Source: an uncultured delta proteobacterium (GTDB lineage Bacteria > Myxococcota_A > Polyangia > Fen-1088). From it: DNA of 64,000 nucleotides. A program made the translations under genes and the position numbers. The stretch lies in assembly GCA_963796685.1 (NCBI GenBank), contig CAWCMR010000025.1, positions 1,664,001-1,728,000 of the forward strand, written 5' to 3'. Positions 1-16,245 of the stretch are shown here, piece by piece; the first letter of the stretch is position 1, and each line of letters begins with the position of its first letter. A model generated the notes under the pieces. The model did not search any database. It was not told where the DNA came from and worked only from the letters and a program-made list of their open reading frames with translations.

Positions 1-4
1 CCTC

Positions 5-160
5 CTAGAGAAAACCGATGCCGGCGCCGATCTTCAGAGCGTCCGACCAGCTCAGATCGCCCGATGGGGCCGGCGCGGGCTTGGCCAACACGACCACCAG
101 CACGAGCAAGGCCGCGGCCGCGGCCACAACGATGAGCGTGATTTCAGTACCCTTGGCCAT
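5..160 (-). CDS. Small single-TM protein (51 aa), putative virion membrane protein
   Basis: Translated by hand: MAKGTEITLIVVAAAAALLVLVVVLAKPAPAPSGDLSWSDALKIGAGIGFL. TGATG overlap with the upstream gene; the stop is followed by GAGG. Confidence 0.75.
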   Translation of the reverse strand: MAKGTEITLIVVAAAAALLVLVVVLAKPAPAPSGDLSWSDALKIGAGIGFL

Positions 161-411
161 CACCAGTTCCAGGGCATGGCGTCCTTCACGATCGACGTCG
201 TGCCTTTGACCACGCTCTGTCCAATTCCGAGCGTGGTGTTCACGGCGCCGCCCGCGAGACCGAAGACCGAGCTCGCGCCCGCGCTGACGGTGCCAAATAC
301 GCCCGTGCTTTGCGGCGCCGCCTTCTTCCCGCGGATGAAAAGCCAGACCAGGACGCCAACGAGGGCGACGGCGCCGACGATGAGCAGCGTCCTGGTGGTG
401 TTGTCTTTCAT
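160..411 (-). CDS. Small single-TM Gly-rich protein (83 aa), putative virion membrane protein
   Basis: MKDNTTRTLLIVGAVALVGVLVWLFIRGKK...; the ATG overlaps the stop of the capsid-like gene (TAATG). It is the real part of track ORF 160..1290. Confidence 0.8.
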   Translation of the reverse strand: MKDNTTRTLLIVGAVALVGVLVWLFIRGKKAAPQSTGVFGTVSAGASSVFGLAGGAVNTTLGIGQSVVKGTTSIVKDAMPWNW

Positions 412-2048
412 TAGGTCACGTCGATGAGGGTCGACGGGTTCCGGAAGTGCTTTGCCTTGCGGTAGGTGGACGGCATGAGGCCGCCGGAGAGCGCGACCTG
501 TTCCTTGATCTTCGCGGACGAGAGCTCGCGGAGGGATAGGGTCAGGAAGGCGTCGGGTCCGGTGCGAGGAACAGAGAACACCCCGCGCAGCTTCGGCTTG
601 GTGTCGGCGTTGAACTTCGGCAACGCCATCGGAACCATTTCGAGGCTCGGCTGTCGGAGCCACAGCATGAGCAGCTTGTCGAGCGAGGCGCCGTTGGCCA
701 CGGTGCCCTGCACGTAGTTGCCGTCGTTGGCGTAGTCGTAGGCACCGATGCGGCCCACGCTCTGCGCTTGCCGGCGCGCGAGCACCAGCATGTCGATCGC
801 CTTCACGTCCTCGAGGCCGAAGTCGGGCCCGATGATGTTGGTCAGGGTGTCGAAGGTCAGGTTGCCAGGCAACCCAGCCAGCTTCGAGAGCCAGGCCAAT
901 CCGAGCACCATGTCCTCGGCCTTGCTGGCCGCGGGGCCGGTGCCGCCGAAGTTCTGGAAGATCAGACCGTCTTCGCCGGAGGCCGGCGTGTCGAGCCGGG
1001 CGTAGGGCAAATAGTTCTGCCGCCACAGCGGGCTGATCGCGTAGCTCGTGCCGAGACGGACCGTGCTCGGATTCTTGGTGTTGGCGTCGGTCGAAACCGC
1101 CGCCAGAGCCGTGCTGGCCGCGATCCCGATCTGGAATCGCATGTTGTCCAGCGTGCGTAGCCACGGGCACGTGGCCGAGGGGTCGCCCAGGGTGCGCTGT
1201 GCCCACGGAAATACGAAGTACTTCGTCAACGGGACGTCGTTCGGATCCGTCGTGGGTACGGTGATCGTCACCGACGGGGCGTCTCCCCACCGGCTGAAGC
1301 CCTGGCCGACGAAGGAGATCCCGCTCTCGAGGATGGGCCCGGTCCCCGTCACCTTGTCCAGGATGGTTCCATGGAACAGGCTGGAGATCTGCAGGTAGTC
1401 GAGCAACCGTGCCAGGTCCTGGCTCAAGATCGGGTTCGTTCCGGTCGAGACCTGTTCGACGGTGGTATCGACGGCGACGATGCTATCGACGCCGATCAGC
1501 GGCTGCCCGCCAGCCGTCTTGTTCTTCGTCGTCGTCTGCATGTAGAGCGAGAGCTCTTGGGTCGCACCAGGCGTGTACGCGAGGCTCTTGCCCTGCCCTG
1601 GCATGGTGACGCCGTCGAGCGTGTCCGGCGCTGAAAGATGGCTGATACCGAAAGCGACGCCGAGGCCTAGCAGGCCTCCCAAGAATCCCAAGACTTGACC
1701 AAGCCAACCGCTCGAGCTCTGCACAAAGCAAGGAACGCTCCCAGCGCATGCGGCGAAGGCGTAGTCAGCGCCGAGCAACACGAAGCCCACGGGCAGCAGC
1801 AAGCCGCTGATGCGCAGCAAGCTCCGCAGGACGCTGGGCAGCTTGTCGCCGTTTCCGGCCGCGGTGATCGTACCGTCGGCGGCCTTGGTAGTCGTCAAGC
1901 TGGTGAACCAGGGCTTGAGCGCCATGCCCACGCCCACCAGCACCAGCACGATGATCGGGCCCATGAACCAGTACTTTTTGCAAAAGTCGATGAAGGCCAT
2001 CGGGGCTTTTGTGACCTGCTCGGTGACGGTGGGGGACGCATCGGCCAT
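411..2048 (-). CDS. Putative double-jelly-roll major capsid protein with N-terminal multi-TM extension
   Basis: SD GAAAGGTG before ATG 2048. About 140 aa with three hydrophobic segments, then about 400 aa rich in beta-strand-like, Thr/Gly-rich sequence. Lies downstream of the packaging ATPase. LTKYFVFPWA and RFQIGIAASTALAAVS recall PRD1 P3 (from memory). Confidence 0.6.
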   Translation of the reverse strand: MADASPTVTEQVTKAPMAFIDFCKKYWFMGPIIVLVLVGVGMALKPWFTSLTTTKAADGTITAAGNGDKLPSVLRSLLRISGLLLPVGFVLLGADYAFAACAGSVPCFVQSSSGWLGQVLGFLGGLLGLGVAFGISHLSAPDTLDGVTMPGQGKSLAYTPGATQELSLYMQTTTKNKTAGGQPLIGVDSIVAVDTTVEQVSTGTNPILSQDLARLLDYLQISSLFHGTILDKVTGTGPILESGISFVGQGFSRWGDAPSVTITVPTTDPNDVPLTKYFVFPWAQRTLGDPSATCPWLRTLDNMRFQIGIAASTALAAVSTDANTKNPSTVRLGTSYAISPLWRQNYLPYARLDTPASGEDGLIFQNFGGTGPAASKAEDMVLGLAWLSKLAGLPGNLTFDTLTNIIGPDFGLEDVKAIDMLVLARRQAQSVGRIGAYDYANDGNYVQGTVANGASLDKLLMLWLRQPSLEMVPMALPKFNADTKPKLRGVFSVPRTGPDAFLTLSLRELSSAKIKEQVALSGGLMPSTYRKAKHFRNPSTLIDVT

Positions 2049-2154
2049 AGGAAACACCTTTCTCGGCGCTGGGCGCTGTTGACGTTGTGTCCAGTCTCAG
2101 GCCAATCGCCGTCGACGTCCGCTGAGGATCTGTCTCCGTCGCTGGCGATGGCGT

Positions 2155-2313
2155 CTAGCGATGAGGGATAGGCGCGGGACCGACGGTGGTCAGTTTCCCG
2201 CACGTGTTGCATCGGTAGGCTCTCATCAATACCCCGTCGCTCCAGTAGGCGTCGGAGCGGCAGGCGTTGAGCCGGAACAAATGCGCAAGGCTGTGCAGAA
2301 TCTTCCGCAGCAT
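2155..2313 (-). CDS. Small Zn-ribbon-like protein (52 aa)
   Basis: Translated by hand: MLRKILHSLAHLFRLNACRSDAYWSDGVLMRAYRCNTCGKLTTVGPAPIPHR. ATG directly abuts the ATPase stop; contains CxxC. Confidence 0.55.
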   Translation of the reverse strand: MLRKILHSLAHLFRLNACRSDAYWSDGVLMRAYRCNTCGKLTTVGPAPIPHR

Positions 2314-3114
2314 TCACGCCGGACCGTAGATCACACCGTCCCAGGCGCGATCGGTGAAGAGGACGATGCATTCGCCCCGCTCCATCCGAGTGAGCAACAT
2401 CGCCGCCTCTTTCGGGATGAGCCGCAGATCGAGGGAGTAGTCGAGCGAGCGGCCACCGAGGCCAAAGAAAATGTAAGCCGTGGCGTTGTCCAGCGCCGAG
2501 CCGGGCATGTGGCTCGGCAGCTGCAGCAGGATGATCGAGCTCGCCCCGGGCCCGCGTCCTTGGAGCTGCAGCCAGACGAGCGCCGGGCCAGCAAACACGC
2601 GCGGTGTGGGCTCGAGCGTGTCTTGGTTCACCCGCAGAAGCGGCGTCAGCTCGTCACCGAGGAACGCGAAGTGCTCCCCTGATTCGGCCGCGTCCCGGAC
2701 GAGTGAGGCCGCATCGTCGCCGCCGATGCCGGGCCGGCAGACGATGAAGGCCGGCGCATCCTCGACGATCGCGCGCCTGGCCTCCGTCATCGAATGGACC
2801 AGCTTCCCCTTGTACTGCGGTCGCTCGGGATCCTTCACGTCGTGGATAACGGCCGTCGAGCAGATGTGCCGGCGCTGCATCTCCTCGACGAACTTCACCG
2901 TGAACCAGGTCTTCCCCTTGCCGCTGGCACCGCCGATCACGAACCGGCCGCCCTCGCCCTCGGGGACGGCGTCGAGAGCAAGCGCAATCGCAGCGCTCTG
3001 AGTGCCGCGAGGCTGGCCGGCCGGGCGAGCCTCGGCTTTTTGAGGCCCCAGTAGTGGTTTCGGCTGTTGTACGCGTTTCGGAATCTTCGCCAGACTTCGT
3101 GATGTACCAGACAT
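2314..3114 (-). CDS. FtsK/HerA-superfamily genome-packaging ATPase (PRD1 P9 / A32-like)
   Basis: Walker A GASGKGKT, Walker B FAFLGDE, arginine-finger/Q motif QGRGPGASSIILLQLP followed by N-ATAYIFF. No TM segment. AAGGA SD before ATG 3114. Confidence 0.8.
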   Translation of the reverse strand: MSGTSRSLAKIPKRVQQPKPLLGPQKAEARPAGQPRGTQSAAIALALDAVPEGEGGRFVIGGASGKGKTWFTVKFVEEMQRRHICSTAVIHDVKDPERPQYKGKLVHSMTEARRAIVEDAPAFIVCRPGIGGDDAASLVRDAAESGEHFAFLGDELTPLLRVNQDTLEPTPRVFAGPALVWLQLQGRGPGASSIILLQLPSHMPGSALDNATAYIFFGLGGRSLDYSLDLRLIPKEAAMLLTRMERGECIVLFTDRAWDGVIYGPA

Positions 3115-3127
3115 AGACGATCCTTTG

Positions 3128-3943
3128 TCACTCGACCGAGGAGGAGGGCGCCGCACCAGTCGCAGCACCATCGTTTGGCACTACGGACAGCCGCGGAGGA
3201 AGGGCGGAGCTCGGCGGGGATCGCGGCTGGTCCTCGCTCTCGGAAGTATCGTGGGCATGCGGCGGGACGCTCTCCTCGGTGGTACTGGGCGCACCAGGAT
3301 CGCGCTCCGCAGGTGGCACACGGCGCTTGGGCCGCAGCGGCTCTCCCGTCATGTACATCTGGATCCACATCACGATGCCCAGGAGGAGCGAGGCCGGGCC
3401 GGGCGCGAGCTCTATCTTCGGCATCTTGCCCTTGCCCTTCGTCCACTTCTCGAATGCCTCGTCGAACTTGTCCTTGATCTCCTCGTTCGGTTCGTCGGGG
3501 TTCCGGCCGCACCACTTGATCGTCTTCTGCTCTCCCGCGACGATCAGCTCGGGCGCGCCCTTGCGGAAGAGTTGCCCGATATCGACCTTCTCCGACTCCT
3601 CCGCCGGCGGCGGCTGCGCTGGTTGCGGGGTGGCTTGCTGCGCTTGCTGCGCTTGCTGCGGCTGCTGCGCCTGCTGTGCGGTGAATCCCCACTTTGCGCG
3701 CAGGGCTTCGTTTGGCGCCCGGCTTGGCGTCGCCGGCGCCGCCGGTTGGCTGGTTGCCGAGCTCGCCGAGGCCTCGGCCGAGCTCGCCGGCGGCTGACCA
3801 GATGCCACCGCCCGCGGTTTGAGTGGGCGATCGCCGCATTTCTTGTCGCAATCCAGGCACTTCGAGATCCCCGAGATGCCCTTGCCGTTGGCGTCCTTCT
3901 TGTCCCAGCGGTGGTTTCGCGTTTCGCATCCTGGTCTACCCAT
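3128..3943 (-). CDS. Viral hypothetical protein: N-terminal Cys/His cluster, Q/A/P-rich linker, hydrophobic helix (possible assembly factor)
   Basis: C-x4-H...CLDC motif, QQA repeats, hydrophobic SLLLGIVMWIQMYM. Sits directly upstream of the ATPase. Confidence 0.7.
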   Translation of the reverse strand: MGRPGCETRNHRWDKKDANGKGISGISKCLDCDKKCGDRPLKPRAVASGQPPASSAEASASSATSQPAAPATPSRAPNEALRAKWGFTAQQAQQPQQAQQAQQATPQPAQPPPAEESEKVDIGQLFRKGAPELIVAGEQKTIKWCGRNPDEPNEEIKDKFDEAFEKWTKGKGKMPKIELAPGPASLLLGIVMWIQMYMTGEPLRPKRRVPPAERDPGAPSTTEESVPPHAHDTSESEDQPRSPPSSALPPRLSVVPNDGAATGAAPSSSVE

Positions 3944-4382
3944 TTTTCATCGGCTCCAGCAGTTTCGGTCCTACAAGCTCCGCCTCGATCACGTTCGTGC
4001 GCCCGTCCGCAGCCTCGAGTTTGAGGGTGGTCAGCTGCGCCCGCTCTCGCTTGTATCGCTCGACTTGCGCAAGGAAGATCCGTTGGATGTTCGGTGCGTG
4101 CGTCTCGACGGCGACTAGGATCGCCTTCACGCAGTCGACCGGCGAGAGCGCTCGCCAGAGGAGCTTTTTGCCCTCCTTCATGATCGTATCCTTCACTTCC
4201 ACGAGGAAGGGCGACGTCGGACGGGAGGCGTGAGCGATCAGGAGGGGGATGTAGTCGAAGATCCAATCCGAGAATTCCTCAACTTGCGGCTCGGCCGCTC
4301 TCGCAACCACCGCGTCGAGCTTCGCTACGAACTTCTCTTCGAGGGTCAGCTTCCGTTCTTCGCTCCGCGTGAAGATGCCCAT
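3936..4382 (-). CDS. Viral hypothetical alpha-helical protein
   Basis: 148-aa ORF with protein-like composition, overlapping the next gene by 8 nt. Confidence 0.75.
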   Translation of the reverse strand: MGIFTRSEERKLTLEEKFVAKLDAVVARAAEPQVEEFSDWIFDYIPLLIAHASRPTSPFLVEVKDTIMKEGKKLLWRALSPVDCVKAILVAVETHAPNIQRIFLAQVERYKRERAQLTTLKLEAADGRTNVIEAELVGPKLLEPMKNG

Positions 4383-4429
4383 GCGCAGAGGGTAACACGT
4401 TTCTGCGCAATCGTGCTACCATCCTCACC
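4382..4429. promoter_or_regulatory. Divergent back-to-back extended -10 promoters with inverted-repeat operator
   Basis: Plus strand TGcTACCAT-N7-ATG(4430); minus strand TGtTACCCT-N6-ATG(4382); inverted repeat TGCGCAGA-N12-TCTGCGCA at 4382-4409. Confidence 0.5.
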
Positions 4430-4900
4430 ATGGAGCTCCTGCTCAACCGGACGAGGGATCGGCCGCCGACGCCGCGAGAGGTACAAACGGACATCCGCAA
4501 GCTGGGCTACGTGAACGGGGGAGCGCTTCACGGCAGCTTCAACCGCGATCTCGGGATCTGGCTCTGCATGGTCGTAGCCTTCTGTGATCAGGACGATCTC
4601 TACGCGGCCAACCACTTTTCCGGCGCGCAAGCCGAGCTCGAGTGGTGGCAGCGCGATCACGTTCTCACGGGCCTGGCCTTCGATCGCAGCGAACCGGATT
4701 CGCACTGGGAAGCGCTGGCCTGCGCAAAGCGCGGTCAGCTCGAGCGGGCACGGATCTGCGCATGGTTCGACCGCGGCTCGCTGCCCCGCCTGATCCCTCA
4801 CTTCGAATTCTTCCGGCGGGCGCCTCGAGATCGCGAAAGGTTCCGGCCGCGTGGTGAACCGATCGACGTCCGAGAGATGCGCCGAATGCTCGGCGTTTGA
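4430..4900 (+). CDS. Viral hypothetical protein
   Basis: 156-aa ORF of globular composition, divergent from the structural operon. Confidence 0.65.
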   Translation: MELLLNRTRDRPPTPREVQTDIRKLGYVNGGALHGSFNRDLGIWLCMVVAFCDQDDLYAANHFSGAQAELEWWQRDHVLTGLAFDRSEPDSHWEALACAKRGQLERARICAWFDRGSLPRLIPHFEFFRRAPRDRERFRPRGEPIDVREMRRMLGV

Positions 4901-4922
4901 ATCCCCCACAAAAAGGAGTCCC

Positions 4923-5354
4923 ATGGATCTGCAGAAGCTCTTCGTCGCCCTCGAACAAGCAGGAGTCACCACGATCGGACAGGCGCGCAGCGCACTGGTG
5001 TCCCTCGGCATCCAGCCCGCATCGCTGGCCCTCAACCACTCCGATTTGCCGAAAGCGCTCTCGACTCTCAAGCCGGTGACAGCGAAGCCTGGAACCGCGG
5101 CCGCGGCCACTGCCGTACCGGCGCCCGCCTCGCCAAAGCCATCGGACGTTGCCGTCAGCCAGGCCGCCGAGCTCGCCGTGAAGATCGTGGCTCCCCAGCT
5201 CGAGCACCTCCTCGAGGTTGCGATCAACCAGATCCACTCCTCGATCGCGCAGCACATGGATCCCGTGCACGCGACTCTGACCCAGGTTCAGACCACGCTG
5301 GCGGCCGCCGCAGCCAAGGCGTCCGCGCCCGCGGCCGCACCGGCGCAAACGTAA
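4923..5354 (+). CDS. Viral hypothetical Ala-rich protein
   Basis: Strong SD AAAAGGAG before ATG 4923 (MDLQKLF...); GC3-biased codons. Confidence 0.75.
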   Translation: MDLQKLFVALEQAGVTTIGQARSALVSLGIQPASLALNHSDLPKALSTLKPVTAKPGTAAAATAVPAPASPKPSDVAVSQAAELAVKIVAPQLEHLLEVAINQIHSSIAQHMDPVHATLTQVQTTLAAAAAKASAPAAAPAQT

Positions 5355-5371
5355 TCCTACGGAAGGGCCGG

Positions 5372-5587
5372 CTATGTCCGGCCCGCCATATCCGTTGAGT
5401 GGCAGTCCGGCCCGCCCCTGGTTTTGGTTGATTTCCCAGGGGCGGGCCGTTTTGCTGGCTTGAGCCTTGACGGCGGGCACCAGCTCCACCAGAGCTCGAA
5501 GAGCTCGCGGCTGATCTCGGTGCACCTCGAGATCCTTGGGAGATCCACCACGTCGCGGACCTTTCGGTCTGTCACTTCTTTTCCCAT
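5372..5587 (-). CDS. Small hypothetical protein
   Basis: 71-aa ORF overlapping the end of the replication gene. Confidence 0.4.
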   Translation of the reverse strand: MGKEVTDRKVRDVVDLPRISRCTEISRELFELWWSWCPPSRLKPAKRPAPGKSTKTRGGPDCHSTDMAGRT

Positions 5588-6510
5588 GGCCGATCGCCGT
5601 AGGTCTTTTCCCAGTGGTCCTTTGCCTCCTGCTGCTTCCGGTGCAAGCGCTTGAGCTCGTGCGCGTCCAGGCCAGCTCCGAGATCTGCCAGAAGCGAATC
5701 CAGGTACCTCCGCGCGAAGGCCTTCGGATTTTCCTCCGCGGCCTTCTTGGTCTCTGCTTTCGTGGCCGGCTTCGCAGGCGCAACTTTTCGTTCAGCGATG
5801 AACATCTGCTTTTCGAGGTAAACGTCGGCCCACGGACGCCATCTCTCACTCCGCGACATATATCTAGGGACCTGCAGTGGTAACGCATACTGCAATTGCT
5901 CCCACTCTTCCGTGGTCAGCTTGGCCAGCAGGCGCTTGCATTTAGGCGGATCTCTCAGCTTCCAGTGCAGGTTCTTGAACCACTCCCACCGCGTCAGCGC
6001 TACCTTTCCACCCCCCTTCAGGGGGGCCCCGGGGGGCGCGTCCACGGGACGCCCTTTATTACTTTCTGCAGAATGTCTCTGAGACGTCCCGTTGATGTCC
6101 CGTGGACGTCCCGTGGACGTCCCGTTTTCACTTCTCGCTTCCTCCAAGGCATCTTCGTGGAGCTGCTCGCGGAATTTCGCCTTTGCCTTCTTCCAGCGGA
6201 GCCGCTCCTTCTCGTAGCTGCCCATCGGCGTCTTGTCCCAATCGGGGTAGTACCAGGTCCGTCGCCGACGGCGGAGAAAGTGATTCGAGCCCAAGGCCTT
6301 GACCAGCGTTCGAGTGGATGCCCTCACGCGCATCCGGGATCGGATGTGTTCGATCTGGTACTTCTTGGGCAACTTTCCGTCGCTGCCCTCGAGCATGACA
6401 AACTCCCGCAAGCGCATGATCGCCTCGGCGCCCGCACAGTCCTTGATTTGCTCGGCGAAGGTTTTGGTGAAGACGTCGTCCCAGAATCCGATCTCACAGG
6501 GGACGTACAT
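5572..6510 (-). CDS. Putative phage replication initiator (replisome organizer / lambda O-like layout)
   Basis: N-terminal wHTH-like region ending WYYPDWDK, basic helix ERLRWKKAKAKFRE, low-complexity linker containing DNA iterons, helical C-terminal domain. Likely start MYVPCE at 6510. Confidence 0.6.
   Translation of the reverse strand: MYVPCEIGFWDDVFTKTFAEQIKDCAGAEAIMRLREFVMLEGSDGKLPKKYQIEHIRSRMRVRASTRTLVKALGSNHFLRRRRRTWYYPDWDKTPMGSYEKERLRWKKAKAKFREQLHEDALEEARSENGTSTGRPRDINGTSQRHSAESNKGRPVDAPPGAPLKGGGKVALTRWEWFKNLHWKLRDPPKCKRLLAKLTTEEWEQLQYALPLQVPRYMSRSERWRPWADVYLEKQMFIAERKVAPAKPATKAETKKAAEENPKAFARRYLDSLLADLGAGLDAHELKRLHRKQQEAKDHWEKTYGDRPWEKK
6083..6126. repeat. Four tandem 11-bp repeats GA(C/T)GTCCCGT(G/T), putative origin iterons
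   Basis: GACGTCCCGTT GATGTCCCGTG GACGTCCCGTG GACGTCCCGTT; partial inverted copy CACGGGACG near 6043-6051 and a short AT-rich stretch between. Confidence 0.8.
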
Positions 6511-6817
6511 CTGTACCCCACTTCGCCAAGCAAGTTTCTGCGTGCCTGGACCATCGATCGCCCTTGTAGTCCAGGTGTTCAAGGATCTCCCGGAACCACT
6601 GCGGTCCGATGGTCTTGTGCTTGGCCGTGACCTCGTACCACAGCACGATGGTTCCCGTCTTGTCGGGGTTCGGTTCGACGTTAATGAGATCCCCAATGTT
6701 CTTTTCCGGGAACCGATCGTCCCTGGCCCAGATGATCTTGGCCTTGCAACCGAGACACACAGTGAAGTGCCCCGGCTGCGATCCTTTTACCTGGGCCCTC
6801 TGCACCTTCTTTTCCAT
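6494..6817 (-). CDS. Phage Zn-finger protein
   Basis: CLGC-KAKIIW ... RHAETC pattern, common in small phage proteins. Confidence 0.65.
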   Translation of the reverse strand: MEKKVQRAQVKGSQPGHFTVCLGCKAKIIWARDDRFPEKNIGDLINVEPNPDKTGTIVLWYEVTAKHKTIGPQWFREILEHLDYKGDRWSRHAETCLAKWGTDVRPL

Positions 6818-6819
6818 CT

Positions 6820-7035
6820 TCACCGCCGCACCGCCTTTCTTCGCAAGCACAGCCGGCGGATAGTTGCCGGATCCGGTGGCCACGTCTCACCTGCAGGCCG
6901 CGAGAACACCTTACCCAGGTGCGCGGAGATCTGCCGGAAGTTCATGCCCTGGCCACGTGCGCGGATCGCCTCGTCGGTGGCCGCCGGCGTCCAGGGGAAC
7001 TTGTGCGGAGCTCCGATCTTGCGTCCGCCGCTCAT
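6820..7035 (-). CDS. Small HTH DNA-binding protein
   Basis: WTPAATDEAIRARGQGMNFRQISAHL...PDPATIRRL; ATGA coupling with the upstream gene. Confidence 0.65.
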   Translation of the reverse strand: MSGGRKIGAPHKFPWTPAATDEAIRARGQGMNFRQISAHLGKVFSRPAGETWPPDPATIRRLCLRRKAVRR

Positions 7036-7367
7036 GCTGCACCTCCGGAGTTGGCGAGAAGGATCCGATCGATGTGAACCTTCAACGCACTGGTGAGAAC
7101 CTCGGAAACATTGACTGGCAGTAGAACCTGCCGGACGTCGGGACGTAGACGCGTACACGCGACGGTGAACTCTCCCGAGATGAAACCCACGAAGAAGAGC
7201 TCAGGCCGGAGGCTGCGTTGATCGAATTCTCGCGCAACCGCGTTCGAGAGCTCGTGGACCAGTTGATCGCGGTAGGCGGTCGAATCGAAACAAACGGGCA
7301 CCCTGCGCAGTTGCTGCGGCGGCCGCGGCCGGCGGAGGATGTTACGGAACCACGCGAGGCCGATCAT
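7032..7367 (-). CDS. Viral hypothetical protein
   Basis: ATGA overlaps at both ends. Confidence 0.65.
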   Translation of the reverse strand: MIGLAWFRNILRRPRPPQQLRRVPVCFDSTAYRDQLVHELSNAVAREFDQRSLRPELFFVGFISGEFTVACTRLRPDVRQVLLPVNVSEVLTSALKVHIDRILLANSGGAA

Positions 7368-7645
7368 CGGAGATCTCCGGCCGCGAGCTCCCACATGGTG
7401 ACCTCGTCATCGGTCATTGCTCGGGCGATCGTCGAGCCGCAGTTGCGACACGTGCCAAGCTCGAGGACCTGGGCGCCGGCGTCTTTCGGGTCATCCGGCT
7501 TGTCATCGCCGGCGCGGCAATCCTGGAAACCGCAGGGTGAGGTCAGAGTACGGAATAAAGCGACGCTGCGCTTGATTGCTTCATGGGACTGTGGTGTGCA
7601 GGCGCGTTGTGGCTTGCCATCGCGGTCCAGCTGAGATAGATGCAT
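7364..7645 (-). CDS. Viral Cys-rich hypothetical protein
   Basis: SD GGAGGAAG; CRNC motif plus other Cys; first gene of the leftward operon. Confidence 0.7.
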   Translation of the reverse strand: MHLSQLDRDGKPQRACTPQSHEAIKRSVALFRTLTSPCGFQDCRAGDDKPDDPKDAGAQVLELGTCRNCGSTIARAMTDDEVTMWELAAGDLR

Positions 7646-7711
7646 GTGAACTTCCTCCGAGGAGGAAGGCAGCGATGGAAGCGACGAGGGATGAAAGGCA
7701 GCCTACAACCG

Positions 7712-7757
7712 GGACTGAAAATCCGTGTGTAGACAGTTCGACTCTGTCCCTGGGCAC
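7712..7757 (+). other. att site: 3' half of tRNA-Phe(GAA) duplicated by integration
   Basis: GGA-CTGAAAA-TCC anticodon loop, T-arm GACAG-TTCGACT-CTGTC, acceptor 3' strand CCTGGGC-A. No D-arm or 5' acceptor strand upstream. Confidence 0.85.
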
Positions 7758-7820
7758 TGCCAGAGTAAATACCTCGTACGTAAAGAGGACGCTTGCTTAG
7801 AGCGTCGAAGGAGACATTCA

Positions 7821-10433
7821 ATGGCTCGTAAAGTCATCATTTTCATTTTAGCCATCGGGGCCGTCACCGGCGGGTACTTCCTGGGGCGAAAGAACTGGAA
7901 CCTGGGCGGCGGCAACGCCGTTGCCAAGTTCACTTGTCCCAATCCCGGCGCCGCGGTGGCGGGTGATGACGTCGAGCGCAAGTGCGTTCCCTTCGACGGC
8001 AAGGCCGAGGGCTCGAGCAAGGCGATGGTCACCATCGTCGAGTTCTCCGACTTTCAGTGCCCGTTCTGCAGCAGGGTCCTGCCCACCCTGGACAAGCTGC
8101 TCAAGGAATACCCGGACAAGGTTCGGATCTTCTTCAAGAACAACCCGCTGCCCTTCCATAGCGACGCACCGCTGGCAGCCCAGGCCGCCGTGGCCGCCGA
8201 GGACCAGGGCAAGTTCTGGCAGATGCACGACATCCTGTTCAAGAACCAGCAGAACCTCAAGCGCCCTGATCTCGAGAAGTACGCCAAGGAAATCGGCCTG
8301 GACGTCGAGAAATTCAAGAAGGACATCGATTCGCCCGCCACCAAGAAGCACGTCGCGGACGACATGGAGCTTGCCAAGAAGCTGGGCGTGCAGGGCACCC
8401 CGAACTTCTTCATCGATGGTCGCCCCATCCGCGGCGCCGTGCCCTACGAACAGTTCAAGTCGGCGGTGGATGACGAGCTCGCCCGTGGCAAGAAGCTGAT
8501 GGCCAAGGGCGTCGCGTCCGGCAAGGTGTTCGCCGCGCTCATGAAGGGCGAGGGCAAGGGCCTCGGCACCCCGACGCCGCCTGCGCCGCCACCGCACATT
8601 CCAATCGGTTCCGAAGTCTACAAGGTCGAACCCGGAGACGCGCCGCAGGTGGGCGGCAAGGAGCCCAAGGTTACCCTCATCGAGTTCTCGGACTTCCAGT
8701 GCCCCTACTGCTCTCGCGCCAAGGGCACGCTGGACGAGCTGCAGAAGATCTACAAGGACGACCTGCAGATCACTTTCCGGAACTTCCCGCTTCCCTTCCA
8801 CCAGAACGCCATGCCCGCGGCCATCGCCGCCAAGGCCGCCGAGGAGCAGGGCAAGTTCTGGCCGATGTATGACAAGCTGTTCGCCAACCAGCAGGCGCTT
8901 TCATCGGCGGATCTCGAGAAGTACGCCTCCGAGATCGGCCTGGACATGGCCAAGTACAAGGCTGCCATCGCGAACCCCAAGACCAAGGCCGCCGTAGAAG
9001 CCGACGCGAAGATGGGCAGCAACTTCGGCGTGGGAGGAACGCCTTCGTTCTTCATCAACGGCCACGCTTTCAGCGGTGCCTATCCTCTCGAAAGCTTCAA
9101 GATGGCCATCGACGACGAGATCAAGAAGGTCGATGCCAAGATCGCGTCCGGTACACCGCGCGCGGGTCTGTACGCCGCGCTCGTCAAGGACGGCCTTACC
9201 AAGGCCGAGCCCAAGAAGGAGCAGGCGCGCCCCGGCGAGCCGCAGGCCGGCGAGGTCTACAAGGCTGATATCAAGGGCGCGCCGATCAAGGGCGCCAAGG
9301 ACGCCCTCGTCACCATCGTGCAGTTCTCGGACTTCCAGTGCCCGTTCTGCTCGCGCGTCGAGCCCACCATCGACCAGGTCATGAAAGAGTACGCCGGCAA
9401 GGTCCGCGTGGCGTGGCGCAACCTGCCGCTTCCCTTCCACAACAACGCCAAGCCGGCCGCCATCGCGGCCATGGCCGCCAACGAGCAGGGCAAGTTCTGG
9501 CAGATGCACGACATCCTGTTCAAGAACCAGCAGGCCCTTTCCGCCGCCGATCTCGACAAGTACGCCAAGGAGATCGGCCTCAACATGACCAAGTTCAAGG
9601 CCGCCCTCGAAGACAAGAAGCTCGCGGAGCGGGTCGAAGCCGATGCGGCCATGGGGGCCAAGATCGGCGCGCGCGGCACGCCGGCTTTCTTCATCAACGG
9701 CACCTTCCTGTCGGGTGCTCAGCCGTTCGAGCAGTTCAAGGCTCGCATCGATGAGGAGCTCAAGAAGGCCGAAGCGCTGGCCAAGAAGGTTGGCGGCAAG
9801 GCGAAAGTCTATGACGCCCTCATGAAGACGGCCAAGGCCGAGGTCGGCGGTGCACCGGCGCCCTCGGCTGACAACGAGGCGGCCCCTGGTCCGGCCAAGA
9901 AGGTCGAAGTGGGCAATGCGCCGGTTCGCGGCCCCAAGAATGCACCCATCACCGTGGTGCTCTTCTCGGACTTCCAGTGCCCGTTCTGTAGCCGCGTCGA
10001 GCCCTCGATTGCCGAGCTACAGAAGCTGTACCCCGGCAAGGTGCGCGTGGCATGGAAGAACTACCCGCTTCCGTTCCACAACAACGCCAAGCCCGCGGCC
10101 GAGGCCGCCTTGGCCGCCAACGAGCAGGGCAAGTTCTGGGAGATGCACGACATCCTGTTCAAGAACCAGCAGGCCCTGACTGCCGACGACCTCGAGAAGT
10201 ACGCCAAGGAAATCGGTCTCGACATGACCAAGTTCAAGGCCGCCATCGACAGCCACAAGTTCGCGGCTCAGATCGAGGCGGACACGAAGCAGGGTTCGGC
10301 GCTGGGGGTGCAGGGAACCCCGGCGGCGTTCGTCAATGGACAGCTGGTCTCGGGCGCGCAGCCCGTCGATGCCTTCAAGAAGATCGTCGAGGCCGATCTC
10401 AAGGGCGGCAAAGCCAAGGCCAAGGCCAACTAG
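7821..10433 (+). CDS. Membrane-anchored DsbA-family protein with four tandem thioredoxin domains
   Basis: N-terminal TM; four FSDFQCP(F/Y)C motifs, each with a GTP cis-Pro loop. Confidence 0.93.
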   Translation: MARKVIIFILAIGAVTGGYFLGRKNWNLGGGNAVAKFTCPNPGAAVAGDDVERKCVPFDGKAEGSSKAMVTIVEFSDFQCPFCSRVLPTLDKLLKEYPDKVRIFFKNNPLPFHSDAPLAAQAAVAAEDQGKFWQMHDILFKNQQNLKRPDLEKYAKEIGLDVEKFKKDIDSPATKKHVADDMELAKKLGVQGTPNFFIDGRPIRGAVPYEQFKSAVDDELARGKKLMAKGVASGKVFAALMKGEGKGLGTPTPPAPPPHIPIGSEVYKVEPGDAPQVGGKEPKVTLIEFSDFQCPYCSRAKGTLDELQKIYKDDLQITFRNFPLPFHQNAMPAAIAAKAAEEQGKFWPMYDKLFANQQALSSADLEKYASEIGLDMAKYKAAIANPKTKAAVEADAKMGSNFGVGGTPSFFINGHAFSGAYPLESFKMAIDDEIKKVDAKIASGTPRAGLYAALVKDGLTKAEPKKEQARPGEPQAGEVYKADIKGAPIKGAKDALVTIVQFSDFQCPFCSRVEPTIDQVMKEYAGKVRVAWRNLPLPFHNNAKPAAIAAMAANEQGKFWQMHDILFKNQQALSAADLDKYAKEIGLNMTKFKAALEDKKLAERVEADAAMGAKIGARGTPAFFINGTFLSGAQPFEQFKARIDEELKKAEALAKKVGGKAKVYDALMKTAKAEVGGAPAPSADNEAAPGPAKKVEVGNAPVRGPKNAPITVVLFSDFQCPFCSRVEPSIAELQKLYPGKVRVAWKNYPLPFHNNAKPAAEAALAANEQGKFWEMHDILFKNQQALTADDLEKYAKEIGLDMTKFKAAIDSHKFAAQIEADTKQGSALGVQGTPAAFVNGQLVSGAQPVDAFKKIVEADLKGGKAKAKAN

Positions 10434-10505
10434 CGCAAGAGCACCGTCGGGCGTGCCTGACGGTGCTGATCGCGCGATTGGGAGGCGCAGGCCATCGATC
10501 CGAAA

Positions 10506-11084
10506 TTGGCGCAAATCAAGAAGCAGCGAACGCGAAGGTTGCTGGCGGCGTGCATGGCCGCTGCCGTGACCGTCGCCGCGGGTGCGCTGCTCATCGAGGG
10601 TGCGGCCTCGACGGTGAAATCCGCCGAGGAGGTTGCTTGTGCCGCACTTCGCCCTGATCCGCTTTCGGCCAAGCTGCGTGCGTTGGTGCCGGACTTTCAA
10701 CTGCCCGATCTCACCGGTAGGAAGGTGTCGCTGCGTAGCTTGCTCGGCCGGCCGGTACTGGTCAGCTTCTTCGCCACGTGGTGCCCGCCTTGTGTCGCGG
10801 AAGCGCCGACGCTCGAAATCCTGGCCGGGCGCCTCGGCGACAAGGGCACCGTGGCCGTCGTCAGCGTGGACGAGGATCTGGAGGCGCTCAAGAAGTTCTA
10901 CGCCAAGGGATCGCAGACCCTCGTGCTTCGCGACGAGAGCCGCGGGGTCCCGTCGAGCTTCGGCACCACCCAGTTTCCCGAGTCGTTCCTCCTCGATGCC
11001 AGGGGCAAGGTCCGCTACGCCTTTCTCAACCGGCGCGACTGGTCGCTGCCCGAAGCCGTCGCTTGCGTCGAAGGCTTGCGGTAA
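10506..11084 (+). CDS. TlpA/ResA-family thiol-disulfide oxidoreductase
   Basis: FFATWCPPC motif, FPESFLLD, N-terminal hydrophobic segment. Confidence 0.88.
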   Translation: MAQIKKQRTRRLLAACMAAAVTVAAGALLIEGAASTVKSAEEVACAALRPDPLSAKLRALVPDFQLPDLTGRKVSLRSLLGRPVLVSFFATWCPPCVAEAPTLEILAGRLGDKGTVAVVSVDEDLEALKKFYAKGSQTLVLRDESRGVPSSFGTTQFPESFLLDARGKVRYAFLNRRDWSLPEAVACVEGLR

Positions 11085-11235
11085 GGGCGTCGGAAGCCCA
11101 CGACCGACGGCGCACTGTCACGCACGACGAGACGACTGCCGTGGTCGCGCAACGCGACCGCCCTCACTACGAGAGCGCCCGGTGCCCTGACGCCTGTTGA
11201 CTGGCGGCGCTCCTCGCACGTAGGTTCTTGCTGAA

Positions 11236-13614
11236 ATGTCCTTCTCAAACGTCGTGCTTTCCATCACACCGGCGCGCGGCAGCGCGCGCCGGGTAGGTCC
11301 GTGGCTGCTCGGTGCTTTGGTCTTGCTCGTGGCGAGTATCTTCGCCCCGTCGGCCATGGCGCAGCCGGAAGATCTGTTGGTCGGCCGCCGCCCCGTGCAC
11401 AGCGAAGGGGTAAAGAATGCCGTCCGCCTCACCGATGGCCTCCTGAGCAACGAGGGAGACGAGTGGTTGACCGACGTGACCTCGCGCTTCTCGTCGGCGC
11501 GATCCTTCGTCGAGTACGACCTGGGCCAGCCGCGATCGTTGCGCTGCGTGATGGTCCAGGCGGACAACAACGATGTCTATTTCATGGCCGGCTCGCTCGA
11601 CGGGCACGAATGGCAGCAACTTTGGCGGGTGGGCGCGGAATCCGGCGCGGGCATGCGCGTGCGCGCCACCAAGCTCGACACCACGGCTCGCTACCTTCGC
11701 CTGTCGGCCACCGGCGGCGACGCGCTCTACAGCGTGGCCGAGATCGCGGTCTACTCGGAATGCCCCGTGCCCTGGCCGGCGGACTTGCCCCGCGCGCACG
11801 GCATTCCGGTGGACGACGCCCTCAACGTCAAGGTGCTCGCGTTCGGAATCCTGGCCGGCCTCTTCGTGCTGGTTCATCGTCGCAAGGGGCCGAAGCTGCA
11901 ATACGTGCTGGTCATGCCGGTGCTCGGGGCGCTATGGATGCTCACCTCGGATCTGGTCGACCTGTATCCCTTCTTCAACCAGGAGCCGCCCTTGCGCGCG
12001 CTGGTGGCCGGGCTGGCAGCCTTGGTGGTGATCAAAGAGGCGTTCCTGTCGAAACGCTGGGAGCCCCATCGCGCGGTGTCCTTGGCGACGCTAGCGTTTT
12101 GCGCCATCACCGCCTTCGGCACCTACTACCACTTCGGCATGCCGCAGTTCTTCGACCAGGCCAAGGGACGCCGAACCTTCGTGCACACCTGGGACATGCG
12201 CCACTACTATCCGGTCGCGAAGTACTTTCCCGAGCTGCGCTTCGACGGGCTCTACCTGGCCAGCCTGGCCGCCTACATCGACAACACGCCGGGTTTCACG
12301 AAGGAGCAACTCGCCCACGTGCGCTTGCGCGATTTGCGCACCGCCGAGATCGTTACCGGCACCGAGGCGGAGGCCGAGCTTCCCGCGATCCGCGCGCGTT
12401 TCACGCCCGAGCGCTGGGAAGAGTTCAAGCGCGACATGAAGTACTTCTCGGACACCATGGGCGGCGCCGACTACCTGGGCAGCATGCAGGACCACGGCGG
12501 CAACGCCACGCCGGTGTGGATCCTGCCGGCGTACTTCATGTTCAACGCCGCACCGGCCAGCGAGCTCGTCATCTCGCTGGCTGGTCTCATCGATCCCATC
12601 CTGGTGCTCTTCCTGTTCTGGATGCTGTATCGCACGTTCGGGCTGCGCATCATGCTCTACGTGGTGGTCATCTGGGGGGCCACCGATTTCTACAACTTCG
12701 GCTCGAACCTGATGGGCTCGACCCTGCGCCAGGATTGGTTGGTGGCGCTGGGGTTGGGGGCGTGCGCGCTCAAACGGGGCCGCTATGCCCTGGGCGGCGT
12801 GCTCATCGCCTATGGCGGGTTGATTCGCGCCTTCCCGGCCATGGCCACCTTCTTTTTCCTGGTGCCCATGGGGTGGTTCGCCTTCGATTCTTGGTGGTCG
12901 AGGCGAAGGCTGCCGACCCGCGCCGAGTGGCGAGCGGGTCAGCGCCCGGCCCTACGCGCGTTCACCGCCGCCGCCATCTGCGTGGTCGTGTTGGTCGCCG
13001 CCACCAGCGCGCTCTTCGGCTTCCGTGGCTCGTGGATCGCGTGGAAGGACAAAATCGAGATTCACGCCACCGGTCCCAGCACCAACAACGTGGGGCTGCG
13101 CAACGTGTTGGCCTTCGACCCCAATTTTTCGGCCAAGTCTCTGGCCGAGCATCACCGGGCCGGGATGTGGGGCGACTGGGGCTACGCGCAGAAGATGACC
13201 TTTGCGGCGCGGCGGCCACTGTTCTACGCCATCCTCCTGCTGGCCACGGCCCTGGCCCTGCTCGCTTGCCGCGGGCGCACCCTCGAGGAAGTTTCGCTCA
13301 TCGGCCTCCTGCTGATCCCGTTCTACTTCTATCCATCGAACTACTACTGCCACTTCGTGTTCCTGTTACCCTTGGCCGTGGTGCGCCCGAGTCTGGACCG
13401 CGACAAGACCTTCGCCATCGTGTTTCTCGTGCTCGCGGGCATGTGTATCGGGCAGTACTTCACCCTGGCCGAGGGCTGGACCGATCTCCGCTACACCTAC
13501 CAGAGCTTCCTGCTCCTCATCGGGTTCGGTATCATCCTGGCATACCTCGCCTGGGAATCCCTGAAGCTGGCGCCCTTCACCAAGCGTGGCGAAGTCGCAG
13601 CCGACGGCGGGTAG
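11236..13614 (+). CDS. Multi-TM membrane protein with N-terminal discoidin (F5/8C)-like domain; probable GT-C glycosyltransferase
   Basis: Signal peptide; EYDLG..., ARYLRL and SVAEIAVY discoidin-like strands; more than 10 TM helices. Confidence 0.65.
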   Translation: MSFSNVVLSITPARGSARRVGPWLLGALVLLVASIFAPSAMAQPEDLLVGRRPVHSEGVKNAVRLTDGLLSNEGDEWLTDVTSRFSSARSFVEYDLGQPRSLRCVMVQADNNDVYFMAGSLDGHEWQQLWRVGAESGAGMRVRATKLDTTARYLRLSATGGDALYSVAEIAVYSECPVPWPADLPRAHGIPVDDALNVKVLAFGILAGLFVLVHRRKGPKLQYVLVMPVLGALWMLTSDLVDLYPFFNQEPPLRALVAGLAALVVIKEAFLSKRWEPHRAVSLATLAFCAITAFGTYYHFGMPQFFDQAKGRRTFVHTWDMRHYYPVAKYFPELRFDGLYLASLAAYIDNTPGFTKEQLAHVRLRDLRTAEIVTGTEAEAELPAIRARFTPERWEEFKRDMKYFSDTMGGADYLGSMQDHGGNATPVWILPAYFMFNAAPASELVISLAGLIDPILVLFLFWMLYRTFGLRIMLYVVVIWGATDFYNFGSNLMGSTLRQDWLVALGLGACALKRGRYALGGVLIAYGGLIRAFPAMATFFFLVPMGWFAFDSWWSRRRLPTRAEWRAGQRPALRAFTAAAICVVVLVAATSALFGFRGSWIAWKDKIEIHATGPSTNNVGLRNVLAFDPNFSAKSLAEHHRAGMWGDWGYAQKMTFAARRPLFYAILLLATALALLACRGRTLEEVSLIGLLLIPFYFYPSNYYCHFVFLLPLAVVRPSLDRDKTFAIVFLVLAGMCIGQYFTLAEGWTDLRYTYQSFLLLIGFGIILAYLAWESLKLAPFTKRGEVAADGG

Positions 13615-13639
13615 GGGCGGGTTTCAAACCCGCCCCTAC
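13611..13639. repeat. GTAG-type REP palindrome / bidirectional terminator
   Basis: GTAGGGGCGGGTTT-C-AAACCCGCCCCTAC, a perfect 14-bp inverted repeat that contains both convergent stop codons. Confidence 0.8.
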
Positions 13640-14730
13640 GGTTTCTCGAGATCGGCCAGGATCTGCTTGATGGTCATGGCTGCCGGTTTACCGCGCGGGG
13701 TGTAACTGGTGGTTCCCGGTCCCCCGTAGCCGTACCAGTTCCAGATGTATAGGCCGTCCAGTCGCGTCCGGGCCGCGAGCGGCTCGGTCCACGCCAGGCG
13801 GAAGGCCTCGAAGCCGCGTTGTTGTTCGCCGAGATCGGGGGTTCCCCCCGAGGATTCGTCCCAGGGCGAGGCCGTGGCGCCCGCGCGCGAACGGTAGCCG
13901 ACCTCGGTGAAGAGGAAGGGCTTGTCGTACTTTGCCAGGTCGGATTCGATGGTGCGGCCGATACGCCGCCAGCTCGCGGCCAAGGCTTGCACGTCGGACG
14001 GCGCGGAGGGTTCGCGCAGGTTGAAGTATGCGGTAATGCCGATCTCGTCGACCAAGTCGAACAGCCGGGCGTCGCGGTAGTGATCCCAGTTGGCCGAGTA
14101 GACGAGGGTGCCCGTAAAGACGGCGCGAACGAAGGTGATGAGCTTGCCCCAACGGTCGAGATCGCCGTCGAGCGAGGACAGCTCGCTACCGATGACCAGC
14201 CGGGTGGCGCCGGTCAAGGTCGCCAGCGAGGCCAGATCGCCGACCATTTGTCCGTAGCTTGCAAACCAGGCGTCGGGATCGGCCGGGTGCAGGGTGCCGC
14301 GCCACTCGTCGGACGAGCGCGGAGCAGACAGCCGGACAATCGGGAACAGCGTGACCTCCAGGCCAGCGCGACGTGCGTCGCGAATGGCGTCGGCGACGGC
14401 CTCCAGGGTCGGCGAATACCGGGTGTGAAGGTAGAGTCGGTTGGAGGCAGCGTCGGTCTGATAGAGCGGGACTACCAGCGCGACGTGGCTCGCGCCGAGC
14501 GCGGCAATTTCCTCGAGCAACGGCGCGTACGAAAAACTCACGTCCTCGGCAAACAGCCCGAGCGCCACGCCTCGCTGCACGGGATCGCGGTTCACGCGGC
14601 GGCGCGACGGCAGCGGCGGCGCAGACGATTGCGGCGAGGCGGTGGGTTGCTCCGGCAGGGACGAGGCATGCGCGGCCAAAATGCCCACGGTCGCGAACAC
14701 GAGGAGCCCGATGGCAAGGCGGCGATACAT
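13636..14730 (-). CDS. Secreted glycoside hydrolase family 113-like TIM-barrel protein
   Basis: VIGSEL, YSANWD, KPFLFTEVGYRS, YTPRGKPA motifs; signal peptide. Confidence 0.82.
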   Translation of the reverse strand: MYRRLAIGLLVFATVGILAAHASSLPEQPTASPQSSAPPLPSRRRVNRDPVQRGVALGLFAEDVSFSYAPLLEEIAALGASHVALVVPLYQTDAASNRLYLHTRYSPTLEAVADAIRDARRAGLEVTLFPIVRLSAPRSSDEWRGTLHPADPDAWFASYGQMVGDLASLATLTGATRLVIGSELSSLDGDLDRWGKLITFVRAVFTGTLVYSANWDHYRDARLFDLVDEIGITAYFNLREPSAPSDVQALAASWRRIGRTIESDLAKYDKPFLFTEVGYRSRAGATASPWDESSGGTPDLGEQQRGFEAFRLAWTEPLAARTRLDGLYIWNWYGYGGPGTTSYTPRGKPAAMTIKQILADLEKP

Positions 14731-14948
14731 CGAAGGAAGTTAACCATAGGGAACACAGGGAGCCCAGAGGTCCCGGACGAATCGGACGACCCCAAGCCCG
14801 CGATAGCCGCAGAAGGTCTTGGTCGTGGCCGTGACCGTGGCCGGTTGCAATTACCGTCGGCCATGGCCACGGCCACGGTAAGCCGTCTACGTCCACGACC
14901 ACCGTCATGGCTTCGATTGCGTGCGTACGTCCTTCGTGGAAAGGTGTA

Positions 14949-16242: not shown

Positions 16243-16245
16243 GGT

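Follow-up and report, generated by a model that had tools for sequence, protein, structure and literature searches.

What kind of protein is made when a viral capsid gene is preceded, in the same frame, by three hydrophobic segments? This question is raised by an open reading frame (ORF) near the left edge of the DNA analysed here, a 64,000-nucleotide stretch of an uncultured delta proteobacterium (contig CAWCMR010000025.1, positions 1,664,001 to 1,728,000; hereafter the window), of which the ORF takes up a small part. The original prediction saw in it a membrane-tethered capsid precursor or polyprotein matured by proteolysis. We found that the ORF lies in an integrated element of 15.76 kb, with relatives of 15-17 kb, that we assign to a temperate, internal-membrane-containing virus with a double jelly-roll (DJR) capsid protein, from a previously undescribed family. 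The fold of the body, the conservation of the fusion, the motif, the charge and cysteine pattern of the leader and the prophage context are direct observations. The capsid protein is likely to be inserted into the membrane. The reading that we favour, with a probability of about 0.4, is an integral-membrane DJR capsid precursor in an N-out topology that would be cut by signal peptidase I after the second of its three helices.

A three-helix leader in frame with a capsid-like body

On the reverse strand, positions 411-2057 translate into 548 stop-free codons counted from a GTG at 2057, and all residue numbers given here follow this frame. Translation most likely starts at ATG 2048, which would give a protein of 545 residues. 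The database gene call for the window protein (P0003, 545 residues) begins at this ATG, AAAGG is located 8-14 nt 5' of it, and the position agrees with the M-A-E/D beginnings of the homologues. The leader comprises about 140 residues (the first 142) and carries three hydrophobic helices, FMGPIIVLVLVGVGMAL at residues 31-47, ISGLLLPVGFVLLG at 83-96 and WLGQVLGFLGGLLGLGVAFG at 118-137, in frame with a body of 406 residues. The Kyte-Doolittle hydropathy peaks over 15 residues reach 2.54, 2.19 and 2.19 in the leader, and the maximum in the body is 1.51. The GC content at third codon positions is 0.80 in the leader (0.49 at second positions) and 0.90 in the body, with an identical frame. Translation, hydropathy and codon-position GC thus confirm the arrangement of three hydrophobic segments in frame with the body that had been noticed at the outset. 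The features of the ORF are as follows, with transmembrane helices abbreviated as TM.

411-2057, reverse strand: whole ORF, leader plus DJR major capsid protein; 548 codons from GTG 2057, stop codon at 411-413
1968-2048, reverse strand: N-tail, residues 4-30, with a conserved T-K-A-P ... F-x-K-K-Y-W motif (alignment, charge counts)
1917-1967, reverse strand: TM1, residues 31-47 (hydropathy; helix 32-55 in the model)
1812-1916, reverse strand: loop 1, residues 48-82, putatively cytoplasmic (charge counts)
1770-1811, reverse strand: TM2, residues 83-96, about 14 hydrophobic residues resembling the h-region of a signal peptide
1749-1760, reverse strand: A-F-A-A, residues 100-103, candidate signal peptidase I site with a predicted cut between A102 and A103
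1707-1748, reverse strand: Cys-rich loop 2, residues 104-117, putatively periplasmic (charge and Cys counts)
1644-1706, reverse strand: Gly-rich TM3, residues 118-138 (hydropathy; helix 118-140 in the model; superposition on P3 of phage PRD1)
414-1631, reverse strand: DJR capsid body, residues 143-548 (model, Foldseek, VIA-align, alignment)
1602-1604, reverse strand: internal ATG (Met152), candidate alternative start, not conserved

Conservation of the fusion among homologues

To collect homologues we combined an exhaustive HMMER search, which gave 49 cluster representatives, with a word-seeded search, which gave 18 relatives. Eight fragments shorter than 330 residues were left out (P0023, P0028, P0030, P0033, P0038, P0043, P0059 and P0062). 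The resulting alignment, A2, has 58 rows made up of the HMMER set, the word-seeded set and the window protein. All 18 word-seeded relatives are 521-581 residues long and cover 94-99% of the query, with identities down to 36%. Overall, a leader of 89-180 residues precedes the body in 39 of the 58 full-length homologues (long forms), including 30 out of 30 members of the window's clade, and the remaining 19 are leaderless, with at most 12 residues before the body (short forms). At least two hydrophobic windows fall within the first 150 residues of every long form (39 out of 39), and none falls within the first 130 residues of any short form (0 out of 19), a contrast beyond what chance would give.

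The layout of the leader is alike even in distant long forms. Its N-terminal half consists of an N-tail ending in K-K-x-W, TM1, a positive cluster and L-P-x-x-L-K, and its C-terminal half of TM2, D-x-A-x-A-A, a Cys-rich stretch and a Gly-rich TM3. Within the N-tail, position K27 is a lysine in 30 of the 39 long forms and an arginine in five. The mean identity to the window protein is 38% for the leader and 43% for the body, and it is 52% for TM2 and A-x-A; TM2 with the A-x-A-A motif is the most conserved stretch of the leader. The body opens with a conserved S-A-P-D-x-L-D strand, which is also the N-terminus of the short forms. At the level of DNA, one tblastn segment covers both leader and body in all six independent loci with a complete gene. 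An assembly error can be excluded because independent assemblies hold the same continuous gene. Sequence comparison therefore supports a fusion of leader and body that is real and under selection, and not an artefact.

The fold of the body

Searches by sequence returned no informative match. The capsid ORF hit 0 families in Pfam and PHROGs at E-values up to 1, and the only match of the 58-row profile among PDB sequences was a chance ABC permease (E 0.32). No match was found by tblastn between the window protein and 50,697 phage records, nor between the short form P0042 and the same records or plasmids, and scans of IMG/VR with A1, A3, P0039, P0046 and P0042 returned zero relatives.

Structure prediction was more productive. 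From the single sequence, AlphaFold2 gave a predicted local distance difference test (pLDDT) score of 37.8. Remodelling with alignment A2 raised the mean pLDDT to 85.5, with residues 145-548 at about 90-97. Foldseek matched the body with a probability of 1.00, placing PRD1 P3 at the top (E 2.7e-10), then PR772, with chains of Sulfolobus turreted icosahedral virus (STIV), Sputnik and PM2 lower. In BFVD, the best named matches were the capsid proteins of Gluconobacter phage GC1 and Bacillus phage Wip1. With VIA-align, the superposition on PR772/PRD1 P3 had a Z-score of 21.0, with a root-mean-square deviation of 3.7 A over 310 aligned residues. The Z-scores were 17.2 for STIV, 16.9 for PM2 P2 and 15-16.6 for PBCV-1, faustovirus, D13 and p72, and only 8.3-8.9 for cellular DUF2961/GH172 proteins. 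The model thus confirms the beta-rich, capsid-like body as a DJR major capsid protein of the Varidnaviria/Bamfordvirae type, with two vertical jelly-roll barrels per chain.

The same superposition relates the leader to the known structure. Model residues from 128/135 onward match P3 residues from 13/26 onward, so that TM3 runs into the position of the N-terminal helix region of P3, and the C-terminal half of TM3 superposes on this region. The N-terminus of PRD1 P3 is its membrane-facing end.

Charge pattern and signal-peptidase-like site of the leader

To orient the leader we counted the charges in its loops across the 39 long forms. Loop 1 has on average 4.95 lysines and arginines and 0.92 acidic residues, loop 2 has 0.18 and 1.44, and the N-tail 3.05 and 1.97. 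Since loops rich in lysine and arginine lie on the cytoplasmic side (the positive-inside rule), loop 1 is predicted to be cytoplasmic and loop 2 periplasmic. Together with three membrane spans, this placement would put the N-tail on the outer side and the capsid body in the cytoplasm, the site of capsid assembly, and so give an N-out topology. Loop 2 is also distinguished by its cysteines, of which at least two are present in 29 of the 39 long forms; their density is 7.3%, versus 0.64% in the body.

Signal peptidase I substrates have a positively charged n-region, an h-region of 10-15 residues, small residues at positions -3 and -1, and no proline at +1. All of these features of Sec signal peptides are found in the TM2 region. 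Loop 1 ends in L-P-x-x-L-R-x-x-L-R, a positively charged n-region preceding TM2, and the h-region averages 14.2 residues in length. Position -3 is alanine in 29 and valine in 7 of the 39 long forms (36 with either), position -1 is alanine in 34 and glycine in one (35 with either), and position +1 is alanine in 29, serine in 5 and glycine in 3 (37 overall), and never proline. A102, at -1, is the most conserved single residue of the leader (34 out of 39), and D98 is kept in 29. The A-F-A-A motif of the original prediction, which lies at residues 100-103, is thus among the best-conserved positions of the leader. The predicted orientation of TM2 and its signal-peptide anatomy lead us to favour membrane insertion with subsequent cleavage by signal peptidase I.

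We also considered A-A-C as the lipobox of a lipoprotein and rejected it. A lipobox reads L-[AS]-[GA]-C, its spacing does not vary, and the residues leading up to it are uncharged. Across the homologues, the first cysteine occurs anywhere from 1 to 8 residues after A-x-A, and the aspartate conserved in 29 of the 39 long forms stands 6 residues before the cysteine in the window protein.

Long and short forms

To follow the presence of the leader through the family, we built an unrooted tree with a quick IQ-TREE run on 424 alignment columns of the body, excluding those of the leader. All members of the window's clade are long forms on this tree. Elsewhere the two states are intermixed: the tree requires 4 changes of the trait, and well-supported branches force at least 3 of these. 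The sister pairs P0039/P0049 (support 99) and P0046/P0056 (support 98) are in opposite states, with P0049 and P0056 carrying the leader. Gain and loss of the leader are indistinguishable because the tree is unrooted. The N-terminus of the short forms coincides exactly with the conserved P-x-x-x-D-L strand, which in the long forms comes after TM3.

We asked whether the leader also occurs as a separate protein. In seven leader-bearing loci the spacer between the genes for the presumed packaging ATPase and the capsid protein measures 190-370 nt and holds no conserved or hydrophobic ORF, and hence no separate membrane-protein gene. A search of the window leader against proteins of 30-300 residues found none at E-values up to 0.1, and a profile of five mixed-clade leaders (A4) against proteins of 48-210 residues found none up to 0.01; both searches were word-seeded and used hydrophobic queries, which makes these negatives weak. 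A search of the ESM Atlas with the leader gave no usable match. For the short form P0042, the ESM Atlas neighbours include clusters in which 11-18% of the members carry PF09018/PF25514, which serves as a lead only.

A more distant leaderless relative was found in the host's own family (genome G1216; profile E 4.4e-36), and it is the one leaderless relative seen in its genomic context. There the ATPase gene is separated by a 156-nt spacer from a capsid gene that begins with the body, and genes for two single-helix proteins follow; the spacer is too small for a leader gene. This very distant DJR element (locus L028, G1216:C719, positions 2774-5366) lies on a 12-kb contig in which NN pairs break the reading frames.

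A proposed capsid precursor held in the membrane

We infer the topology, membrane insertion, cleavage and assembly route of the capsid protein as follows. It would be synthesised as an integral protein of the inner membrane, with its N-tail outside (in the periplasm or the virion lumen) and TM1 running from outside to inside. The lysine- and arginine-rich loop 1 would lie in the cytoplasm. TM2 would then cross from inside to outside and present itself like a Sec signal peptide, with a positive n-region, an h-region of 14 residues and the A-x-A-A c-region. After the short Cys-rich loop 2 in the periplasm, TM3 would return inward and leave the 406-residue DJR body in the cytoplasm, hung from the membrane by its N-terminus. 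A cut by the host signal peptidase I after A102 would separate a two-helix hairpin of about 98 residues from a capsid protein that keeps TM3 as its single anchor.

Assembly would follow from this arrangement. Capsomers would form directly on a virus-specific patch of membrane, on its cytoplasmic side, and take the patch along into the particle, with no recruitment as soluble trimers; the capsid protein itself would mark, coat and perhaps bend the patch. After pinching off, loop 2 and the N-tail would face the particle interior. In its full form, a polytopic polyprotein split by the host signal peptidase whose self-coating membrane patch buds into the cytoplasm with no separate membrane-recruiting factor, the proposal is tentative, and we hold it with somewhat less conviction than the cleaved precursor alone.

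Several observations weigh against the cleaved, membrane-inserted precursor. The topology was drawn from our own hydropathy and charge counts, and the confidence of the model in the leader is modest, at 46-82 pLDDT. The N-tail has a net charge of about +1, which is not ideal for a translocated tail, and the third hydrophobic stretch of P0056 spans about 12 residues, which strains a three-span topology in that protein. The conservation of A-x-A-A could reflect helix packing and not a cleavage site. The leader is missing from 19 of the 58 homologues, and at least two sister pairs combine a long with a short form. Its absence there means that it is dispensable for the DJR capsid fold and that a shell can be built without a covalent anchor.

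We considered four other explanations. The capsid protein may be inserted in the membrane and never cut, so that each trimeric capsomer places nine helices in the internal membrane. All the evidence for membrane insertion applies equally to this possibility, no protease gene was recognised in the element, and the N-tail and TM1 are conserved with the rest, as expected of retained structural parts. However, conservation in the leader is strongest in the residues at -3/-1/+1 and in the short TM2 h-region, which a plain anchor would not need. In addition, by our own estimate 720 copies with three helices each would take up about a third of a PRD1-sized vesicle, which is crowded but possible. We consider an uncut anchor somewhat unlikely. 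Less likely still is a leader that acts as a transient device for targeting or assembly and is removed completely by a second cut near the junction of TM3 and the body, leaving a mature protein that would be soluble, as PRD1 P3 and the 19 short forms would be. The coincidence of the short-form start with the strand following TM3 would agree with such a cut, as would the conservation of the S-A-P-D-x-L-D junction (P144 in 30, D145 in 32 and D148 in 32 of the 39 long forms). Yet the same motif forms the N-terminus of the leaderless proteins, so that the fold explains its conservation, and no candidate for a cytoplasmic protease was found in the element.

If translation started, or also started, at or near the in-frame ATG at 1602-1604, the product would be a soluble capsid protein, with the long form made in small amounts or serving another purpose. 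Some methionine does occur between query residues 136 and 160 in 21 of the 39 long forms. However, Met152 itself is found in 4 of the 58 sequences, within an insertion of that small clade, no Shine-Dalgarno-like sequence lies upstream of it, and it falls beyond the conserved first body strand (residues 145-148 in the model), so that the fold would be truncated. An internal start, which the original prediction had named as an alternative, is thus very improbable. The least credible explanation, to which we attach next to no weight, is that the fusion is an artefact of a lost stop or mis-assembly, or that the protein is a cellular DJR-like enzyme and not a capsid protein. Cellular DUF2961/GH172 proteins do share the fold, but their Z-scores of 8-9 compare with 21 for PRD1 P3, and the gene lies in a mobile element with an ATPase gene beside it. 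A lost stop or assembly error, the other doubt raised at the start, is contradicted by the 39 independent long forms and by the continuous frame in independent assemblies, in which no stop or frameshift was seen. As to the proposal of a membrane-tethered precursor matured by proteolysis, its first half, the tethering, is well supported, and its second half, the proteolysis, is plausible from the sequence.

Comparison with known capsid systems

PRD1 is the closest system in structure, and its gene order is similar. The body of 406 residues compares with 395 codons of the PRD1 gene III coding sequence, and in both cases the capsid gene follows a small P-loop ATPase and precedes genes for small membrane proteins. 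In PRD1 the order is P9 ATPase, ORFi, P20 and P3, which bears out the statement of the original prediction that P20 is a separate gene between ATPase and capsid. ORFi and P20 each encode a single-helix protein of 42 residues, whereas here the corresponding position is occupied by the fused leader. This positional correspondence is real. Homology is not supported by hhalign, in which the profile of 39 leaders matched ORFi and P20 with probabilities of 0.2% and 0.9% (E 0.3 and 0.064), although proteins this short do not allow a firm negative. The PRD1 genome is linear, and the element studied here is integrated through a tyrosine integrase and has relatives with direct terminal repeats. The genome features of Tectiviridae (linear, with inverted terminal repeats and a protein-primed family B polymerase) do not describe it, as the terminal repeats of the metagenomic loci L005 and L007 are direct, not inverted. 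Nor is the window protein a sequence member of the Tectiviridae P3 families PF09018 and PF25514, given the absence of Pfam matches reported above.

The way in which shell and membrane are joined also differs. PMC6356626 describes PRD1 P3 as made soluble, and the soluble capsid protein as recruited to a patch of cytoplasmic membrane with phage membrane proteins that is then pinched off. The earlier claim that characterised DJR capsid proteins are soluble therefore stands for PRD1 P3 but needs qualifying for STIV B345, which according to PMC10551542 has a C-terminal membrane-interacting helix. Like the window protein, B345 is a DJR capsid protein carrying a hydrophobic helix that contacts the internal membrane, and it is the one precedent that we found for a DJR capsid protein itself touching the bilayer. 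STIV, however, is an archaeal virus and its helix is single and C-terminal, whereas the window protein has three N-terminal helices with a signal-peptidase-like motif. In PM2 (P2; P3/P6) and NO16 (GP19; GP18), phages with an internal membrane, capsomers are thought to be positioned on that membrane via transmembrane proteins, as stated in PMC6356626 and PMC13552765. These linkers have genes of their own, whereas the window protein carries its membrane part in the same polypeptide chain. The family also differs from the PM2 type (Corticoviridae/Vinavirales) in other respects: the PM2 capsid protein has 269 residues (2vvf_A) against the 406 of the body, which matches P3 better, and the PM2-type genome is a circle of about 10 kb, against units of 15.0-17.0 kb whose direct terminal repeats suggest a circular form.

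Partial parallels exist outside these phages. In vaccinia virus, trimers of the DJR protein D13 are held on the membrane by the transmembrane protein A17 and released by proteolysis. D13 (Z 15.5) and A17 are, however, two separate proteins of a eukaryotic virus, and the DJR lattice is transient. The procoat pVIII of filamentous phages and the anchored capsid protein of flaviviruses are membrane-inserted precursors that are cut by the host signal peptidase before assembly, but their folds and virion architectures are unrelated to the DJR protein described here. We know of no DJR virus that processes a membrane-inserted capsid precursor by signal peptidase. Our literature search, which covered full texts and few papers from subscription journals, gave no report of a DJR capsid protein that has a polytopic leader at its N-terminus or is processed by signal peptidase.

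The current model of how internal membranes are acquired rests largely on PRD1 and PM2, with soluble capsomers, separate membrane proteins and assembly factors. A DJR capsid protein made as an integral membrane protein would, if true, be a different and simpler way to couple shell and membrane, in which coat and membrane form one physical unit from synthesis onward. The capsid would then probably be assembled directly on the cell membrane, a route that is undescribed for this kind of virus. DJR phages with an internal membrane are a known kind; the new part is the integral-membrane capsid protein in an otherwise unannotated virus family. This family appears as a deep new branch of temperate DJR viruses, with no match in the phage records, IMG/VR and plasmids searched. 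If our reading is right, the repeated gain or loss of the leader would be a natural experiment on the coupling of shell and lipid in internal-membrane viruses, and the closely related leader-bearing and leaderless forms permit comparative tests.

Prophage context

The 15.76-kb element (positions 952-16757 of locus L003) is integrated in the 3' end of a tRNA-Phe gene. Direct repeats of 46 nt (96% identity) occur at the 3' end of this gene and at window positions 7712-7757, and since the two copies are 15,760 bp apart, the element consists of window positions 1-7757 and about 8 kb past the left edge. A tyrosine integrase adjoins the tRNA gene (PF00589, E 8.2e-11; phrog_1, E 6.4e-25). In all four congeneric genomes checked, tRNA-Phe lies directly beside the DsbA-domain gene of the right flank, which means that the site is empty there, and the capsid gene was found in none of 12 congeners. 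The following features surround the capsid gene.

7712-7757, forward strand: attR, 46 nt repeating the 3' part of tRNA-Phe at 96% identity; its partner lies left of the window
2314-3171, reverse strand: P-loop ATPase, presumed packaging ATPase, with Walker A G-A-S-G-K-G-K-T and Walker B hhhhDE
2155-2313, reverse strand: 52-codon ORF with C-x-x-C in the spacer between ATPase and capsid gene; non-membrane, weak PHROG matches (E 6e-4)
160-411, reverse strand: single-TM protein of 83 residues whose start overlaps the capsid stop (TAATG); weakly conserved in relatives
5-163, reverse strand: single-TM protein of 52 residues

On the reverse strand, the order of genes is a 271-residue ORF, the P-loop ATPase, the capsid gene, three small single-helix proteins, ORFs of 198 and 238 residues and more small membrane proteins, and this order is common to the metagenomic loci L005, L007, L009, L010 and L012. 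The direct terminal repeats of L005 and L007 are 99 and 136 nt long and imply units of 15,045 and 17,033 bp; we read both as circular or terminally redundant genomes. A P-loop protein of 230-285 residues with Walker A and B motifs is encoded directly upstream of the capsid gene in all six loci checked. Its family matches are generic (AAA_16, E 0.003; FtsK_SpoIIIE, E 0.058 in one of six members). When about 25 ORFs of the element were scanned against Pfam and PHROGs, the integrase alone matched specifically and the ATPase matched as a generic P-loop protein. The scans recognised no protease gene and matched no polymerase family, the latter absence being weak as most ORFs are orphans. Related loci showed no counterpart of the 52-codon spacer ORF, and it is doubtful that it is coding; the spacer may hold the late promoter.

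After the capsid gene and the ATPase, the best-conserved genes of the element are the 198-residue and 238-residue ORFs. The former (L003 8174-8770, reverse strand) is beta-rich, with 26-39% identity in six loci, and is a penton candidate by position only. The latter (L003 7516-8232, reverse strand) has an N-terminal helix and 40-61% identity in six loci, and is a candidate lytic or vertex protein. Two ORFs lie on the strand opposite to the rest of the element, one of 156 residues (window 4430-4900, forward strand) and, overlapping it, one of 167 residues (4851-5354, forward strand). The former is kept in L005, L011, L012 and L007 (28-48% identity) with no family match, and it may be a lysogeny or regulatory gene.

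Of the window's integrase, the last 54 residues alone match the L005 contig (positions 145-306, 83%), and L007 has no match; in these two relatives with direct terminal repeats, the integrase may be absent or reduced to a remnant. L005 and L011 gave the same tblastn identities and lengths for every shared gene, as did L009 and L010; given these identical figures, each pair is probably nearly the same virus genome assembled twice and not independent.

Genome searches with A2 indicate a sparse distribution. In the host's own phylum, one of 401 genomes was hit, the window's own, and in its own family two of 89, namely the window's own genome and G1216. In the class and in the phylum of G401, among 401 genomes each, only G401 was found. 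A weak match in G787 lies off-frame inside a transporter gene and was discarded.

The host gene beside attR (window 7725-10433, forward strand) encodes four tandem DsbA/Thioredoxin_4 domains (PF13462, E 9e-126, four stretches). Its listed GTG start overlaps attR, and the true start is therefore probably the later M-A-R-K.

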